Shown here one piece after another: positions 1 to 6,663 of a stretch of DNA of 6,663 bases (the first letter of the stretch is position 1; each line of letters starts with the position of its first letter). This DNA is from a virus. Its lineage: Duplodnaviria > Heunggongvirae > Uroviricota > Caudoviricetes. A program made the translations under genes and the position numbers. The stretch lies in the IMG/VR virus record IMGVR_UViG_2711768001_000005; one strand, 5' to 3'. A model generated the notes under the pieces. That model saw only the letters and a list, made by a program, of their open reading frames with translations, searched no databases and was not told the origin of the DNA.

Positions 1-78
1 CGTCAGCGTCGTCACTCTCGTCTGGGGAATATCTCCCCGGCAGCCTTCAGGGAAAAATATCATCAGATGGCTGCTTAA
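1..78 (+). CDS. IS3-family transposase (OrfB-like), C-terminal fragment, 5' truncated by the window edge
   Basis: Open frame from base 1 to TAA at 76-78; translation RQRRHSRLGNISPAAFREKYHQMAA matches the HSxLGxxSPxxF C-terminal pattern of rve-domain transposases (recalled, not searched). Confidence 0.55.
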   Translation, partial: RQRRHSRLGNISPAAFREKYHQMAA

Positions 79-121
79 AAAAAGAACAAATGGTAGTGTC
101 CGCTATTGCCAGTACACCTCA
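1..121 (+). mobile_element. Right end of an IS3-family insertion sequence (partial; element body lies left of the window)
   Basis: Bases 1-121 are the exact reverse complement of 6543-6663. Frame 1 (1-78) reads RQRRHSRLGNISPAAFREKYHQMAA then a stop, which resembles the C-terminal tail of IS3-family OrfB (rve/DDE) transposases. The repeat ends at 121 in CA, the typical IS3-family terminus. Confidence 0.6.
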
Positions 122-525
122 GGATAGCGGTCATGTGATGCCGGTTTCCCGGTAACTCAGCACCGGTATCTGAGTCAACGTTTTCTCTACTGGGTCATTT
201 CCGATACGCCCTGCCTGCTGACAGGCTTTCATCACATCTGAAAATATAGCACCCTGACTGATACTGTAGTACCTAAGGTTCCAGAAACTGTGATGTATCC
301 GGCACAGAAAAGCCCCTCCGGAGAGGGCTGGAGAGTGGCGCTATGTGCCATTGCATGATGCCGGGTGCCTCCCGGTGAATTCAGTACCAGCACCTGAATC
401 CGCGATTATCCCATATACCTACTCGCTGATTGCCCCTCCGCACAGGGGGATTCACCATGCCAGTTTCTTTTAACAAACTCCCCGCAAAACAGACAACTGT
501 CAACCGTCTGAATTGTGAGACATTT

Positions 526-551
526 AAAAAAAAGGCCCGCAAAAGCGAGCC
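526..551 (-). terminator. Rho-independent terminator immediately downstream of the tRNA cluster
   Basis: Minus-strand RNA GGCUCGC-UUUU-GCGGGCC (7-bp stem with one G-U pair, plus-strand 534-551) followed by an 8-U tract (plus-strand A run 526-533). Confidence 0.5.
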
Positions 552-565
552 AGGGAAAATAAGTG

Positions 566-642
566 TGGCGCGTTGTACTGGATTCGAACCAGTGACCGAT
601 TGCTTAGAAGGCAATTGCTCTGTCCGGCTGAGCTAACAACGC
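566..642 (-). tRNA. tRNA-Arg (anticodon UCU)
   Basis: Reverse complement folds as a cloverleaf: acceptor GCGTTGT/ACAACGC, D-stem GCTC/GAGC, anticodon stem ATTGC/GCAAT with loop CTTCTAA (anticodon TCT), T-loop TTCGAAT, discriminator G, encoded CCA. Resembles argU/argO-type rare-codon tRNA. Confidence 0.9.
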
Positions 643-655
643 ATGATGCAGATAA

Positions 656-732
656 TGGACCGCCATCGGGGACTTGAACCCCGCGCAGCCAGCTTCGAAG
701 GCTGGCGCTCTTTCCTGATGAGCTAATGGCGG
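656..732 (-). tRNA. tRNA-Arg (anticodon UCG)
   Basis: Reverse complement: acceptor CCGCCAT/ATGGCGG, D-stem GCTC/GAGC, anticodon stem CCAGC/GCTGG with loop CTTCGAA (anticodon TCG), T-stem CGGGG/CCCCG with loop TTCAAGT, encoded CCA. Unusual C1-G72 pair and U discriminator, but the cloverleaf is complete. Confidence 0.8.
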
Positions 733-739
733 TATGTGA

Positions 740-815
740 TGGTGGCCCTTGCTGGATTTGAACCAGCGACCTGGCGATTATGAGTCGCTCGCTCTCACCA
801 CTGAGCTAAAGGGCC
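740..815 (-). tRNA. tRNA-Ile2 (anticodon CAU, lysidine type; tRNA-Met not excluded)
   Basis: Reverse complement GGCCCTTTAGCTCAGTGGTGAGAGCGAGCGACTCATAATCGCCAGGTCGCTGGTTCAAATCCAGCAAGGGCCACCA: loop CTCATAA gives anticodon CAT; closely resembles E. coli ileX/ileY-type tRNA from memory. Confidence 0.88.
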
Positions 816-855
816 GGGAGCCGCATAATAACGACGCGTAATTAATTCTTCAATA

Positions 856-1914
856 TCATCCGTTCTGGCTGACTAAATCCTGTACTTCCCGAACCGTCTG
901 CTCAAAACGTTCAGTCTCCAGCTCAACGCCAATTGCACGACGCCCGAGCGCCAGTGCCGCTTTCACTGTCGAACCCAACCCCATGAAAAAATCTGCAATC
1001 AGGTCACCCGGACGACTGCTAGCGCTGATTATCTGCTGCAGCATTTCTGCCGGTTTTTCGCACGGATGTTTCCCGGGATAGAACTGCACCGGTTTATGCG
1101 TCCACACATCGGTATACGGCACCTGCACCGTCACGCCAAAATACCGCCGCAGATGTTTATATTCACTCAGCAGCTCCGCATACTGCCGGTTCAGTGAGGT
1201 ATACGTATCCACCAGCTGGTGGTGGAGCTTTTCCAGTTCACCACGCCGATGCTTCTCTTCTGCCACCCGGGCAAACAGCGCCTGTAATTTCAGATAATCG
1301 CTTTCATTCGGCAACTGCCACTGACCGGCACTGAACCAGTGCGACACCATGTTTTTCTTTCCTGTGGCATCTGCAATCTGTTTTGCCGTTATCCCCAGGG
1401 CAGCTCGCGCATCACGAAAGTAAGAAATCAGCGGGGCCATCACATGCTGTTTCAGTGCACTGCCCTTCGCCGCATACCCGGCATCTTTCGGACGATACGG
1501 CCCCTGATAATGTTCCGCGAACAGAATGCGCTCTGTGGCGGGGAAATACGCCCGCAGGCTTTCCTTGTTGCATCCGTTCCAGCGTCCGGACGGCTTCGCC
1601 CAGATAATATGGTTCAGCACACTGAAGCGTTCACGCATCATGATTTCGATATCAGATGCCAGGCGATGACCACAGAACAGGTAAAGACTTCCGGCAGGTT
1701 TCAGCACCCGCCAGAACTGCGCCAGACACTGGTCCAGCCACTTCAGGTAATCATCGTCGCCCTTCCACTGGTTATCCCAGCCCTCAGGCTTCACTTTAAA
1801 GTACGGCGGGTCCGTGACTATCAGGTCAACAGAATTTTCGGGTAACGACCGGATAAATTCCAGGCAGTCGGCGTTGATTAACTCACAACTGGATATTTTT
1901 ACAGTATTAAGCAT
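856..1914 (-). CDS. DNA methyltransferase, beta-class (N6-adenine or N4-cytosine), phage orphan MTase
   Basis: 352-aa ORF; N-terminal motif IV IVTDPPYF (DPPY) and C-terminal motif I DFFMGLGST (FxGxGS), the IV-to-I order typical of beta-class amino-MTases. No restriction endonuclease partner is present in the window. Confidence 0.9.
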   Translation of the reverse strand: MLNTVKISSCELINADCLEFIRSLPENSVDLIVTDPPYFKVKPEGWDNQWKGDDDYLKWLDQCLAQFWRVLKPAGSLYLFCGHRLASDIEIMMRERFSVLNHIIWAKPSGRWNGCNKESLRAYFPATERILFAEHYQGPYRPKDAGYAAKGSALKQHVMAPLISYFRDARAALGITAKQIADATGKKNMVSHWFSAGQWQLPNESDYLKLQALFARVAEEKHRRGELEKLHHQLVDTYTSLNRQYAELLSEYKHLRRYFGVTVQVPYTDVWTHKPVQFYPGKHPCEKPAEMLQQIISASSRPGDLIADFFMGLGSTVKAALALGRRAIGVELETERFEQTVREVQDLVSQNG

Positions 1915-2007
1915 GGATCATTAAGCCTGTCTCTGATAGGCTCATTCTGCTTTTGCGCAAAGCAGTGGGCCTGAGGTTTGCTTGTGAACCCAACGCATGA
2001 GCAGATG

Positions 2008-2036
2008 GCTGGTGGGTGCCCCTAACACCCACCAGC
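2008..2036. promoter_or_regulatory. Perfect 11-bp inverted repeat (GCTGGTGGGTG / CACCCACCAGC) with a 7-nt loop in the leader upstream of the methyltransferase
   Basis: Seen directly: 2008-2018 is the exact reverse complement of 2026-2036. No U-tract follows on the transcribed strand, so it is not a classic intrinsic terminator; it could be an RNA structure or a protein-binding palindrome. Confidence 0.35.
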
Positions 2037-2050
2037 CGCCCATTTACCAC

Positions 2051-2078
2051 AAATAAAAAAGCCTTCACTGCGGAAGGC
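2051..2078 (-). terminator. Intrinsic terminator overlapping the stop codon of the 65-aa ORF, upstream of the methyltransferase
   Basis: Minus-strand RNA GCCUUC-CGCAGU-GAAGGC (plus 2061-2078) followed by UUUUUU (plus A run 2055-2060). Confidence 0.45.
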
Positions 2079-2262
2079 GTCTGTAACAACCGAACTGATA
2101 GTCTGCCAGACCCGCCATAACCAGCTGGGTCAGTATTAACTGGCAGCGTTCGCGTGAAAGGTAAGTATTCTGCGCTATCTCCCCGACTGTCGCCGGTTCG
2201 GTAACGCTTAATTCATTAAACACCACTCTGGCGGTTTCTGTCATATCCTGCTGTTTTAGCAT
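2065..2262 (-). CDS. Small putative helix-turn-helix DNA-binding protein (65 aa)
   Basis: ATG at 2262 preceded by AAGGA about 7 nt upstream; the segment TVGEIAQNTYLSRERCQLILTQL has a helix-turn-helix-like pattern. Lies between tR' and the MTase in the late transcript. Confidence 0.55.
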   Translation of the reverse strand: MLKQQDMTETARVVFNELSVTEPATVGEIAQNTYLSRERCQLILTQLVMAGLADYQFGCYRRLPQ

Positions 2263-2380
2263 GTCTTTTCCTTTTCCGGTTAACGTGACACACCAATAAC
2301 TCTTGTCGAAAAAGCCAGCAAGCTGAAAGACAGGTATTCACCGCCACCAGCGCGTTTACTGTACTGACGCGATTTCAGTC

Positions 2381-2406
2381 ATAAAAAACCCGCTCGGCGG
2401 CGGGTT
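2381..2406 (-). terminator. tR'-like terminator ending the short pR' leader transcript
   Basis: Minus-strand RNA AACCCGC-CGCCGA-GCGGGUU (plus 2387-2406) followed by UUUUAU; lies about 40-60 nt downstream of the predicted pR' start. Confidence 0.55.
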
Positions 2407-2439
2407 GTAGAAACTCTTCTAACGTCAGGCATAAAACGC

Positions 2440-2481
2440 CCATCGTTATAACGAATTTACCACAGATTCCGGAAAAATCAA
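2440..2481 (-). promoter_or_regulatory. Late promoter pR' with the Q-utilisation/pause region
   Basis: Minus-strand TTGATT (-35, plus 2476-2481), 16-nt spacer, TGgTAAATT extended -10 (plus 2454-2461), then CGTTATAACGATGGG. This matches my recollection of lambda pR' (GGGTAAATT-6 nt-AACGATGGG), and it sits directly after the Q stop. Confidence 0.6.
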
Positions 2482-2486
2482 CCTTG

Positions 2487-3308
2487 TTACCTAGTTACCT
2501 TTTTTAACTGCCGCTCAGCCCATGCTTCTTCAATATCAAACCGGGTCACCAGCGCATCATAAAATTTCTTAACTGTTTTTTCCCATGACGCGCGTGTTAT
2601 CTGGTTTGTCACCTCGCATATAGCATTAAATGCCTCCGTTGATGGTAGTCTTTCATAGCCACGACCACCACAACGCTGGCAGTCTCTGATAACAGGCATA
2701 CCACGTTTTACCGACTCTTCACGATGAATGGCGACACCACGCCCACGGCAATCCTTACAGGCGGTGGAAACCTCACCCTTTCCGCCACACTCCGGACAGG
2801 CAACTTTTACCACCTCCCTGACTTTTTTCCATTCTTCCCAGTAAGACGGATACACACCTTTCGTACACTTTGCCCATACCGGCGGCTTACCATCCGGATA
2901 CTGGATCTTGTTTGTAAAAACCTCGCTTTCAATAAATTTTTTTCCGTGACAGCAGGGGCACTGTTTTTTGCTCGCCGCGCTACGGGCATAATCTTCAAAC
3001 GCATACGAAGCCATAATACGCATCACTGCCGGTTTTATTTCTGCCGGGAGTTTTCTTAACGCCGCCACGCGATCACACCGACTGAGTGCATATTCTGTCA
3101 GCAATTCTGTTGCCCGCTCTCTGTCATTCATACTAATGCCCATTTTCCCAAGGAACGCAGAAACCCCCATCTCAGCCCGATTCTGTGTCATGCCCTGCGC
3201 GGCCATCACATCAGTGATACTCAGCGCATCTTTCGACGTTGAGGCCGATGCATCAGTCAGGCCGGGGGATTTTGGGGAGTAGTATTTCGGTAAATCTTCC
3301 AGTTTCAT
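2487..3308 (-). CDS. Q: Late-gene antitermination protein Q (Qin quuQ-like, cysteine-rich)
   Basis: 273-aa ORF with several CxxC pairs (CPCC, CPEC, CKDC, CQRC); position between rusA and a pR'/tR' unit; ATGA overlap with the rusA stop. Confidence 0.8.
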   Translation of the reverse strand: MKLEDLPKYYSPKSPGLTDASASTSKDALSITDVMAAQGMTQNRAEMGVSAFLGKMGISMNDRERATELLTEYALSRCDRVAALRKLPAEIKPAVMRIMASYAFEDYARSAASKKQCPCCHGKKFIESEVFTNKIQYPDGKPPVWAKCTKGVYPSYWEEWKKVREVVKVACPECGGKGEVSTACKDCRGRGVAIHREESVKRGMPVIRDCQRCGGRGYERLPSTEAFNAICEVTNQITRASWEKTVKKFYDALVTRFDIEEAWAERQLKKVTR

Positions 3309-3685
3309 TTTTTGACCTGCCCTTCAAGCATTATGGGATAAATCTTCACCCCCAGACGTCCACCAGATACTGGCTGAGCACGAACGATATTGATTTCATC
3401 AAACTGCTCATCGTCCATTAGCAACCCCGCATGCGTCAGCGCATCCAGCGGCGCTTTCAGAATATTGTCCAGGTCACGGCGGCGCTTATCCGGTGGTTCT
3501 GCAATAATTTTTATTGCCAACCTTCCGGACAGGCTTAATTTCAGCCGCTGCTGGCGAACAATAAGCGCCACTGCCCGGCGATAACGCTCCCCGGCTTTTG
3601 ATACAAAATATGTGCTGCCACGACGACGCCAGTAAGTGTTCACCGTCGGCGGGTAAGGTAAAACAAATTCTATGCGCTCGGTCAT
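3305..3685 (-). CDS. rusA: RusA Holliday-junction resolvase
   Basis: 126 aa; shares the recalled RusA hallmarks LPxPPxxNxYWR, DKRRRDLDN, DALTHAG, DD and GGRL. Confidence 0.92.
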   Translation of the reverse strand: MTERIEFVLPYPPTVNTYWRRRGSTYFVSKAGERYRRAVALIVRQQRLKLSLSGRLAIKIIAEPPDKRRRDLDNILKAPLDALTHAGLLMDDEQFDEINIVRAQPVSGGRLGVKIYPIMLEGQVKK

Positions 3686-4744
3686 TTATGCTTTCCACTT
3701 CAGAACACCCGAATTTCTCGCGTGCATTAAAAAACGAATCAGCAACAACAGCTGACTGCCGTGTTTCTCTTCAAAATCTTTTACTCCGGCATGTAGTTCG
3801 TTACGGCATTTACGGCATAACGGAATAACAAACAAATCATCAGCCTTTGTTCCCATCCCTCCCAGTCCATGACCAATGATGTGATGCGGATCATCTGCCT
3901 GATTGCCACACGTCATGCATTTCTGCGTTTTTACCCAGCGCGTGTATACAGGCATCTCTTCCCGTTGTGATTTCTGGCGCTGGAGATACTGAGCCGGTGA
4001 CTCCGGATCAACGGCAATGCTGACCACCGTCTTTTCCTGTGGTGGGTTCTGTTGCTGGTGGACGTGAGGCAGTAACGCAATATTTTTTGTGCGCTGCTTC
4101 AGTATGCTGGTGGCTGTCTGCTCTCCCGGTATGATGTCGCTTTCACTGTACACAGAGCGAATTTTTTCCGCACGCAACCCCAGCGAACGACGTAATACCG
4201 CTTCCGGTAGCGCGTCCGCCACCTGATTGCGGACCGCCCACCAGGATAATTCAGCCAGAGATAATTCACGCTCCTGCGTACCGCTTATTGCGTGACCGAT
4301 GACGTCAATCATCCATGCTGACAGGTTTTGATGAGCAAGTTGCTCGAGTGATTCGGATGTCTGGTCACGCAGCTGGTTGTCGCAGTGCCAGCACAACACC
4401 ATTGCGCCGGTACCATAACGGTGAATGACGGTTTCGCTGTGATGATAATCGCCGTGTGGCCACTGGCAGGATTTAATATGGCGCAACAGCCAGTCAGACA
4501 ATGCACCAGCACCACCAGCAGCACGAATCACCCGTGCGTTACTGAAAAACGGCAGCAATGTTTTGTCTTCCACCAGCGGCTGGCGAGCGGCAGGAACGAC
4601 CCCGGACGGCAGATTACGCATGCTTTTTGGTTCCGGCTCCACCAGTATTCTGCCGTTATGGAATGCTGACATTGATTCACGGCCTGGCTTAACGATAACC
4701 AGACCGAGTTCCGGTACCAGAACAGGTCGAAGTAATACCCGCAC
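3686..4744 (-). CDS. DUF968-family (YdfU-like) protein with a C-terminal HNH-like zinc-finger motif
   Basis: 352-aa ORF with apparent GTG start at 4744; C-terminal CMTCGNQADDPHHIIGHGLGG...PLCRKCRNELH (CxxC-HH-CxxC-H pattern). Abuts the rusA start (TAA then ATG), as ydfU does next to Q in K-12 Qin. Confidence 0.8.
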   Translation of the reverse strand: MRVLLRPVLVPELGLVIVKPGRESMSAFHNGRILVEPEPKSMRNLPSGVVPAARQPLVEDKTLLPFFSNARVIRAAGGAGALSDWLLRHIKSCQWPHGDYHHSETVIHRYGTGAMVLCWHCDNQLRDQTSESLEQLAHQNLSAWMIDVIGHAISGTQERELSLAELSWWAVRNQVADALPEAVLRRSLGLRAEKIRSVYSESDIIPGEQTATSILKQRTKNIALLPHVHQQQNPPQEKTVVSIAVDPESPAQYLQRQKSQREEMPVYTRWVKTQKCMTCGNQADDPHHIIGHGLGGMGTKADDLFVIPLCRKCRNELHAGVKDFEEKHGSQLLLLIRFLMHARNSGVLKWKA

Positions 4745-4819
4745 ATTACCTCCAGATCCGTTGCTGGAATGTGCGGGACGGACGCGTTGGCCGTTCGGAG
4801 TAAGGGAGCCTGACGGAGA

Positions 4820-5101
4820 TTATCCAGTGACGGTAGTCGAGGCTAAGGGCTTTTTTAACCTCGCATCCGCGCCTGCGGTAACACTGAATGAGCCATTCGG
4901 CCTGTTCTTCAGTGCATGGGGGATGCTGGTACCAATCAGATTTAAATGCGTGAGAGCGCCGCCCGTGCCTGCTGGCAAAGACGGCTGAATTATCAGAATT
5001 GTGTAGTCTGGAAGGCAGTGGCTGACAATAGCGCCATTCTCAACGCGCACAGTATAGAGGCCATCTTCACTAAAAATTTCACGTAATTCTTCGATTTTCA
5101 T
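4820..5101 (-). CDS. Hypothetical protein, probably frameshifted; the true C-terminus likely continues in the -1 frame to 4746
   Basis: ATG at 5101 (the ORF-track start at 5104 is a TTG) with GGAAGGA about 8 nt upstream; reads MKIEELREIFSEDGLYTVRVE.... A second frame is open from about 5040 to a TAA at 4746-4748 that overlaps the DUF968 start, but has no start codon of its own. Confidence 0.45.
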   Translation of the reverse strand: MKIEELREIFSEDGLYTVRVENGAIVSHCLPDYTILIIQPSLPAGTGGALTHLNLIGTSIPHALKNRPNGSFSVTAGADARLKKPLASTTVTG

Positions 5102-5183
5102 CAACAGAATCCTTCCAGATAAATAGCACTCCCCTGTTCGGGGTCCATCCCTCTTCTCCCTGCGCGCTACTTAAGTATTTTTG

Positions 5184-5213
5184 ATTCTATTCCGGCACCA
5201 TCTAAAACTTCAA
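5184..5213 (-). promoter_or_regulatory. Candidate sigma-70 promoter for the gene starting at 5101
   Basis: Minus-strand TTGAAG (plus 5208-5213), 18-nt spacer, TAGAAT (plus 5184-5189), about 80 nt upstream of the ATG. Sequence match only. Confidence 0.25.
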
Positions 5214-5220
5214 ACGCGTT

Positions 5221-5253
5221 GAAAATAAAAACAAAAACCCGCCGAAGCGGGTT
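5221..5253 (-). terminator. Rho-independent terminator with a UUCG tetraloop
   Basis: Minus-strand RNA AACCCGC-UUCG-GCGGGUU (plus 5236-5253) followed by UUUUUGUUUUUAUUUU (plus 5221-5235). Confidence 0.65.
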
Positions 5254-5338
5254 AAGTGTGGGTGCATTGAGGATGCCTGCCCCATCAGAGGTGGCGAGGG
5301 ATTTCTCCCCCGCCTGGTCTCTTACTCCTCAGGTTCGT

Positions 5339-5689
5339 NNNNNNNNNNNNNNNNNNNNNNNNNNNNNNNNNNNNNNNNNNNNNNNNNNNNNNNNNNNNNN
5401 NNNNNNNNNNNNNNNNNNNNNNNNNNNNNNNNNNNNNNNNNNNNNNNNNNNNNNNNNNNNNNNNNNNNNNNNNNNNNNNNNNNNNNNNNNNNNNNNNNNN
5501 NNNNNNNNNNNNNNNNNNNNNNNNNNNNNNNNNNNNNNNNNNNNNNNNNNNNNNNNNNNNNNNNNNNNNNNNNNNNNNNNNNNNNNNNNNNNNNNNNNNN
5601 NNNNNNNNNNNNNNNNNNNNNNNNNNNNNNNNNNNNNNNNNNNNNNNNNNNNNNNNNNNNNNNNNNNNNNNNNNNNNNNTGAGACAGAT
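5339..5689. other. Assembly gap (351 N)
   Basis: Uninterrupted run of n; the true length and content are unknown. Confidence 0.97.
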
Positions 5690-5744
5690 AGCCTCAAGCA
5701 CCCGCTGCAATTCTACTTAACTCTCCTTTTCCCGCAAACCGTTT

Positions 5745-5828
5745 TTATCCCCAGCGGCAAATCGAATACACCACCAGCGCCACCGCCATCGCAATTCCTA
5801 CCGTTGTTAATGCTTCAGGCCAGGTCAT
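5745..5828 (-). CDS. 27-aa hydrophobic peptide ([27 protein letters not shown]), putative single-pass membrane peptide
   Basis: ATG at 5828 overlaps the TGA of the upstream 114-aa ORF (ATGA); GGAGG lies 10 nt upstream; the hydrophobic core of about 17 residues is flanked by W/P and CRWG. Not in the ORF track because it is under the length cutoff. Confidence 0.4.
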
Positions 5829-6169
5829 CGTAAAATATCCTCCACGCTTATCAGTCCGTTCCGCTCCAGATAACTCATCGCCTTATCCGGTAATTTGCAG
5901 TCTGGCTTCGCTTTCCTCAGTTGCCAGGTTAACTGCTTTACCAGCATGGTTAACTCATCGACCAGACGCTGATATCCCACTGGTTTGTATTCATGCAATT
6001 TACCGGCTGGCTCTGCTGCCAGCGATACCAGTGCGATTTCCAGAACAGCAATATCCATCTTATATGTGCGGATGATGTCATGGTCGATTGTGCCCGGTAT
6101 GCACAGTCTCTGTGCTTCAATAGTCTCCTCTGCGTGAGCTATTAACTGCTCTCTGGTAAAAGTCGTCAT
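5825..6169 (-). CDS. Hypothetical protein (114 aa), paralogous over its N-terminal part to the upstream 55-aa protein
   Basis: ORF with ATGA overlap to the upstream gene; shares the MTTxTxE N-terminus and the IAL(V/A)SL(A/E)AEP motif with the 55-aa ORF. Confidence 0.65.
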
Positions 6170-6333
6170 GCCGTAGCCCCTTCTTGATATTTTTCAAACC
6201 AGAACACAACCGGCTCTGCTTCCAGCGATGCCAGCGCAATCCGTGCCAGTTCCATTTGTTCACCACGGGTAAGCCCGTTTTCAAGCGGGTTTTTAATGAA
6301 CAATTCAATACGTTCTTTGGTAATAGTGGTCAT
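6166..6333 (-). CDS. Hypothetical small protein (55 aa), short paralog of the 114-aa protein
   Basis: ATG at 6333 with AAGGAG 6 nt upstream; translation [55 protein letters not shown]; stop overlaps the next start. Absent from the ORF track (under the cutoff). Confidence 0.6.
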
Positions 6334-6343
6334 GTGTTACTCC

Positions 6344-6542
6344 TTAACCCGCAGTGCTTTCAACTGATGAGGGGAACAAAATCTTTTCATCAAACCCTGC
6401 ATTCATATCATGAACAGCAACACACCAATCCATCGACGAACGATTATCAAGAGCCTCCATGATTTCATCCATGCGGCGTAGGTCATACAGGTAAATGCTT
6501 TTATCGCCAATGGTGTAAAAGCCAATTTTTTTCGGTGATGGA
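6344..6542 (-). pseudogene. 3' fragment of a gene whose 5' part is replaced by the IS end
   Basis: The reading frame is open from the IS end (6543) to TAA at 6344-6346, encoding ...PSPKKIGFYTIGDKSIYLYDLRRMDEIMEALDNRSSMDWCVAVHDMNAGFDEKILFPSSVESTAG. The ORF-track start at 6574 lies inside IS sequence, so that ORF is an IS/flank chimera. Confidence 0.45.
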
Positions 6543-6663
6543 TGAGGTGTACTGGCAATAGCGGACACTACCATTTGTTCTTTTTTTAAGCAGCCATCTG
6601 ATGATATTTTTCCCTGAAGGCTGCCGGGGAGATATTCCCCAGACGAGAGTGACGACGCTGACG
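6543..6663 (-). mobile_element. Right end of a second, inverted copy of the same IS3-family element (body lies right of the window)
   Basis: Exact reverse complement of 1-121; the match stops at 6543 (6542 is A where C would be required). Confidence 0.6.
6586..6663 (-). CDS. IS3-family transposase C-terminal fragment (inverted copy)
   Basis: Reverse complement of 1-78; same translation RQRRHSRLGNISPAAFREKYHQMAA. Confidence 0.55.
   Translation of the reverse strand, partial: RQRRHSRLGNISPAAFREKYHQMAA

Follow-up and report, generated by a model that had tools for sequence, protein, structure and literature searches.

The DNA considered here is a stretch of 6,663 nucleotides (IMG/VR record IMGVR_UViG_2711768001_000005, hereafter the window), whose two ends belong to copies of one insertion sequence (IS), IS600 of the IS3 family, and whose interior is of prophage origin. 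With high confidence the window represents a complete contig, assembled from short reads of a Shigella sonnei-type genome in which a prophage remnant lies between two inverted IS600 copies that arrived separately, the arrangement being a by-product of IS expansion. Both window ends are IS600 right ends pointing inward. The interior comes from a defective lambdoid prophage beside ompW, of which it is the late-regulation segment. Five ISs, IS600 among them, have expanded in all Shigella (Hawkey et al., 2020, PMC7373316), and the Shigella reference chromosomes carry 229-348 IS insertions each (PMC7373316). The pair found here would be a product of that expansion rather than a transposon that brought the block in.

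The ends of the window were identified by their symmetry and by comparison with annotated elements. A repeat finder run on the window returned two arms of 121 nucleotides (nt) each, at 1-121 and 6543-6663, which are reverse complements with 100% complementarity. A chance origin of perfect arms of this length is ruled out. Positions 1-121 matched 3446 E. coli records, mostly with at least 99% identity, in which the sequence is annotated as 'IS3-like element IS600 family transposase', and the IS600 terminus used as a query was found at 6143 places in 2900 genomes. One record (L005) was taken as the IS600 reference, while another (L004) was set aside because it holds a truncated copy. The full IS600 copy in the reference spans L005:658-1921 (1264 bp), and window 1-121 is identical (100%) to L005:1801-1921. 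In this alignment the end of the frameshifted transposase coding sequence, at L005:1878, falls on window position 78. The perfect terminal repeats, the IS3-family assignment and the transposase 3' ends reading inward from both flanks, all claimed in the original prediction from the window alone, were therefore borne out, and the element could be named. The features at the two ends are as follows (ORF, open reading frame; aa, amino acids).

1-121, plus strand: terminal 121 bp of IS600 (copy B), with the last 25 transposase codons, the stop codon at 76-78 and the right inverted-repeat tip (...CACCTCA) at 121.
6543-6663, minus strand: terminal 121 bp of IS600 (copy A), inverted relative to copy B, with its tip at 6543.
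6344-6574, minus strand: chimeric 76-aa ORF, which starts inside the IS600 tip and continues with the final 66 codons of a prophage gene of 264 bp (87 aa).

Homology to relatives that lack the IS starts and stops exactly at the IS tips, at 121/122 and 6542/6543. The window holds 121 bp of the element per end, and the features of the full element were read from closed genomes. There, IS600 copies with the same junctions encode a 385-aa product with HTH_Tnp_1, HTH_21 and rve (DDE) domains. RefSeq labels the IS600 transposase with 'programmed frameshift', and the OrfA/OrfAB organization, the -1 frameshift and the element length of 1264 bp were all found in these genomes. The imperfect terminal inverted repeat of IS600, of the TG...CA type, is also present, the left end TGAGGTAGCC... 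pairing with the right end TGAGGTGTAC....

Eight closed chromosomes (4.8-5.0 Mb) match the whole window with 2 or 3 mismatches or a few gaps. Six of them (L006, L008, L010, L011, L013 and L015) are 99.96% identical to it (2 mismatches), both junctions included, and the remaining two (L009 and L014) match nearly as well and likewise cover both junctions. In the closed genomes the two IS600 copies around the block are both complete, inverted and have their right ends inward, so that two copies of the same IS in inverted orientation, as predicted, do exist. In L006, copy A lies at 8769-10032 (plus strand) and copy B at 16398-17661 (minus strand); each is 1264 bp long, with 0 mismatches between them. 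The true genomic neighbours, unresolved in the earlier view, can be taken from closed genomes with the same junctions, which show what lies beyond each copy. The chimeric junction ORF provided the lead to the host. It was found in 795 blocks of an assembly collection, 83 of these with contigs of more than 1 Mb, and the exact protein occurs on 832 contigs, where it is named as a hypothetical or prophage protein of Shigella sonnei and includes the entry Q3Z0Y9 (Q3Z0Y9_SHISS) of strain Ss046. A genome paper on S. sonnei UKMCC1015 cites one accession with this ORF, CP060117.

Copy B, at the left end of the window, inserted independently of copy A, as a simple and fairly recent event. A 3-bp target-site duplication of its own flanks it, and the inner copy of this duplication lies in the window.

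122-124, unstranded: GGA, inner copy of the target-site duplication of copy B (L006 reads TCC|IS600|TCC).

The corresponding empty site survives in L007 and L012, where the sequence reads GCTATCC|TTCCAGG with a single TCC. L018 (HE616528.1) and the draft L023 have no copy B either: in both, window 121-5013 aligns through the site. The insertion lies between genes, with the tRNA and small RNA (sRNA) cluster on one side and the esterase-holin lysis genes on the other, and interrupts none of them. Past copy B the same prophage goes on with a DUF1737-SASA esterase and then a holin. Given the duplication that belongs to copy B itself and the surviving empty site, the pair was assembled in place. 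In strains without copy B the nearest inverted IS600 is found approximately 3.5 kb downstream, beyond the lysis genes (L007:20108-20231 and L012:20108-20231), and the extent of the 'bounded module' therefore varies among strains.

The genomes differ at a second position as well. A 250-bp stretch with most of the rem gene (PF27490; L007:11506-11755) is missing from the window at 5013/5014. It is likewise missing in the genomes with copy B, and it is kept in L007, L012, L018 and L023, which lack copy B. Because the two changes occur together, they mark one sub-lineage. Copy B is thus polymorphic within S. sonnei, and the window comes from the sub-lineage which carries copy B plus the 250-bp deletion in the rem region.

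Copy A, at the right end of the window, has a rearranged flank. By comparison with the intact gene in L003, it split the 264-bp prophage gene at codon 21/22. Its flanks in L006 are TTT on the outer side and TCC on the inner side, so that the 3-bp duplication found for copy B is absent here, which is explained by a later rearrangement at the left end of copy A. The outer flank corresponds to about codon 11 of a DUF977 gene. The block past copy A, consisting of DUF977', a 70-aa ORF, a DUF4014 gene and the 5' end of the 264-bp gene, has the opposite orientation to the module. At its far end, next to ompW, the block is joined to the 3' part of a lambda-type integrase (L010:6644-7030), and a 128-aa fusion ORF there combines the first 21 codons of the 264-bp gene with the C-terminal part of the integrase. 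The joint of this fusion lies at the same GGA triplet where copy A inserted. Moreover, the early region of the prophage, from the 5' part of int through the replication genes, is absent in the closed genomes. The missing early region and the inverted block together identify a defective prophage remnant at the ompW site. As for the order of the steps, copy A would have split the 264-bp gene and would later have joined in an inversion and a deletion of the prophage early region, anchored at its left end. An inversion of the module between the two copies was also considered as the cause of the lost duplication and was rejected. Un-inverting the module fails to restore the 264-bp gene, because its 5' part sits apart from the module, in the inverted block next to ompW. 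The closed genome L014 has wholly different DNA outside copy A (L014:1-8768), with genes for a Dam methylase, a resolvase and others, which indicates that recombination with a distant IS600 copy produced a large rearrangement.

The equal depth of the cut at both ends, 121 bp into IS600, bears on what kind of record the window is. The assembler would have been unable to cross the multi-copy IS600, so that the contig stops 121 bases into the repeat on both sides. A de Bruijn contig at a collapsed repeat ends at equal depth because neighbouring edges share K bases, and the equal ends would then represent the k-mer overlap into the collapsed repeat with K = 121. This value is a k-mer size in common SPAdes/Unicycler ladders. 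Cutting a stretch at random from a chromosome would not give ends equally deep inside both IS copies. The earlier proposal that the symmetric cut reflects a contig ending in a collapsed repeat fits these data: the ends are multi-copy, the depth is equal and the full copies stand in finished genomes. Furthermore, an independent draft assembly contains a 6197-bp contig (about window 287-6539) which breaks at the same two ISs, and the longest contig with these genes measures 5-10 kb in 325 and 1806 collection blocks. The repeat could alternatively have arisen as an assembly artefact, a hairpin or chimeric contig formed at a single IS600 where no real second copy exists. Graph artefacts can yield perfectly symmetric ends. 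However, both junctions are present in eight independently finished chromosomes, each leading into a full-length IS600, their positions coincide with the ends of homology to IS-free relatives, and the second draft breaks at these same positions. An artefact is accordingly given almost no probability.

Two further readings accept both copies as real and give them a function. Identical inverted copies make both possible in principle; neither finds support here. According to one, suggested in the original prediction, the block together with the IS600 copy on each side is a composite transposon, which has moved, or could move, as a unit. The copies do enclose approximately 6.4 kb of cargo with 0 mismatches between them, and S. 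sonnei, the species with the highest recent IS activity, shows high recent activity of each common IS, IS600 included (PMC7373316). The flanks tell against a composite. Copy B has a TCC duplication of its own and an empty site in L007, L012, L018 and L023, the outer flanks of the unit in L006 are TTT (8766-8768) and TCC (17662-17664) with no duplication around the whole, and the DNA on the copy B side is a continuation of the same prophage. All closed-genome copies of the unit occupy the same ompW-side locus, apart from rearranged outer flanks, and the searches revealed no other location. Neither junction had a match in 5426 complete E. coli genomes and 72,556 plasmids, which yielded only homologues of the interior that lack the IS, and IS600 copies unrelated to these; the exact junction patterns had no match in GTDB representative genomes (both junctions) or JGI metagenome contigs (junction B). 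Elements of the IS3 family transpose by a copy-out/paste-in route via a circle in which the left end of a single element is joined to its right end. The outer ends of the supposed unit would be two left ends, and their use by the IS600 transposase is only hypothetical. A composite is therefore highly improbable. The other reading, also raised earlier, is that of an invertible cassette, in which homologous recombination between the inverted copies turns the Q-methylase-tRNA block around, and both orientations may be present in the source culture. Perfect inverted repeats of 1264 bp lying 6.4 kb apart are good RecA substrates, and copy A appears to have recombined with a distant copy in the genome with the different outer flank (L014). 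On the other hand, the outer neighbours are uniform in 25/25 of the contigs read for the junction ORF and in 37/37 of those read for the methylase: DUF977 (or the L014 variant) always lies past copy A, and SASA follows either copy B or, directly, the tRNA region. A flipped module was not seen among these 62 contig records, which come from two look-ups whose sets may overlap. A short-read contig would look the same in either orientation, so the window itself speaks neither for nor against inversion. It is very unlikely that the block is such an invertible segment. The narrower proposal that the IS600 pair makes the Q-methylase-tRNA block a low-frequency invertible or mobilizable cassette in one S. 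sonnei sub-lineage is also given very little credence; if true, such a cassette would uncouple the Q antiterminator and the phage tRNAs from the lysis genes, or move them elsewhere.

Three points weigh against the preferred reading of a complete contig with two separately arrived IS600 copies. The status of a complete contig and the possession of the same neighbours as in the closed genomes are both deduced from near-identity and symmetric ends. Secondly, the reciprocal junction of the copy A rearrangement (3' part of int, GGA, 5' part of the 264-bp gene) carries no IS. Simple recombination between two IS600 copies is thus not a full explanation of the rearrangement, and a single homologous inversion between two such copies was for this reason not accepted as the origin of the inverted block. 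The third point concerns a run of masked bases.

5339-5679, unstranded: 341 masked bases (N) in a row, where closed relatives have a hok/sok type I toxin-antitoxin locus.

The same flanks enclose 285 bp in 10/10 closed relatives, with a PF01848 HOK_GEF gene annotated as hokD, which leaves 56 bp of the masked run unaccounted for. The distance between the ISs is 6365 bp in closed genomes and 6421 bp in the window, a difference that lies wholly in the masked run. The excess reflects either extra bases in the source or a mask that altered the length.

The arrangement is comparable with several known systems. IS600 insertions in S. sonnei chromosomes such as Ss046 and 53G share the identical 121-bp terminus, the 1264-bp copies, the frameshifted OrfAB and the 3-bp duplication of copy B, and there is no material difference here apart from the copy B polymorphism. 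The lambdoid (Stx-phage-like) late-regulation regions of E. coli prophages, among them the ATCC 11775 prophage and the prophages at the ompW site (PPompW), are a second comparison; the intact prophages of E. coli ATCC 11775 and TUM10008 are 94-97% identical to the prophage DNA. The shared gene order is hokD, hypothetical gene, DUF968, RusA, Q, 65-aa ORF, methylase, tRNA-Ile/Arg/Arg, intergenic region, DUF1737/SASA, holin and lysis genes. Shiga toxin (Stx) phages have the same layout in their late-regulation region. Unlike intact lambdoid prophages, the region here is cut from both neighbours by IS600, its early region is missing and a short block is inverted; unlike Stx-phage-like regions, the prophage in the window has no toxin cargo downstream of the tRNAs. 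As in Tn10/Tn5-type composites, identical inverted IS copies bracket non-IS DNA, but there is no duplication around the unit, the IS copies are independent and no second location is known. The layout was already known, being present in finished S. sonnei genomes, and is an ordinary result of IS expansion and short-read assembly. How ISs have expanded and prophages decayed in Shigella is well documented (PMC7373316), and the biological weight of this example is small. For the reading of other draft contigs from IS-rich genomes, a perfect terminal inverted repeat signals a break at a collapsed repeat and is by itself no evidence of a composite transposon. Closed relatives can provide both the missing neighbours and a test for target-site duplications.

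Between the arms the window has 6421 unique bases, and all interior genes lie on the minus strand. In that direction they follow the order of small nin-like ORFs, hok/sok, DUF968, RusA, Q, methylase, three tRNAs and STnc100. The presence of Q, with RusA and DUF968 upstream and the tRNAs downstream in a conserved order, and of the lysis genes past copy B in closed genomes, identifies the late-regulation segment. The RusA-Q-methylase-tRNA module described at the outset was recovered by Pfam and ARAGORN. The interior features are listed below from left to right.

300-489, minus strand: STnc100-family sRNA (Rfam RF02076, 123.6 bits against a gathering score of 47, full-length match to the model).
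566-642, minus strand: tRNA Arg(TCT) (ARAGORN, Rfam tRNA).
656-732, minus strand: tRNA Arg(TCG) (ARAGORN, Rfam tRNA).
740-815, minus strand: tRNA with a CAT anticodon (ARAGORN, Rfam tRNA).
856-1914, minus strand: N6/N4 DNA methyltransferase, 352 aa (PF01555, E = 7.9e-42).
2065-2262, minus strand: conserved hypothetical gene of 65 aa between Q and the methylase (ORF list; hypothetical protein in relatives).
2487-3308, minus strand: late-gene antiterminator Q, 273 aa (PF03589 Antiterm, E = 1.6e-53).
3305-3685, minus strand: RusA Holliday-junction resolvase, 126 aa (PF05866, E = 1.5e-16).
3686-4744, minus strand: DUF968 protein with an HNH-like region, 352 aa (PF06147, E = 2.6e-62; PF16784, E = 1.9e-6).
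4820-5104, minus strand: 94-aa ORF (ORF list).
5825-6333, minus strand: two small prophage ORFs of the nin-region type, 114 aa and 55 aa (ORF list; also called in relatives).

The STnc100 sRNA comes directly after the phage tRNAs, on their downstream side, a position taken by stx in Stx phages, and copy B follows 178 bp further. The tRNA with the CAT anticodon was called as Met by ARAGORN, whereas its counterpart in relatives is tRNA-Ile in the RefSeq annotation; it is probably a phage tRNA of the lysidine-modified Ile2 type. The assembly collection has this exact methyltransferase protein in 4314 of its blocks. Within Q there is a DnaJ-type zinc-finger stretch (CXXCXGXG; PF00684), which at 30.1 bits scores slightly below the cut-off of 32.7. 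A Pfam search returned no match for the 65-aa ORF, nor for the 114-aa and 55-aa ORFs. These last two adjacent ORFs contain the two copies of a 29-nt direct repeat (6009-6037 and 6212-6240, 86% identity). Both of their products begin with MTT(F/I)T and share the motif ...L(V/A)SL(A/E)AEP..., and from these similarities they look like diverged paralogues.

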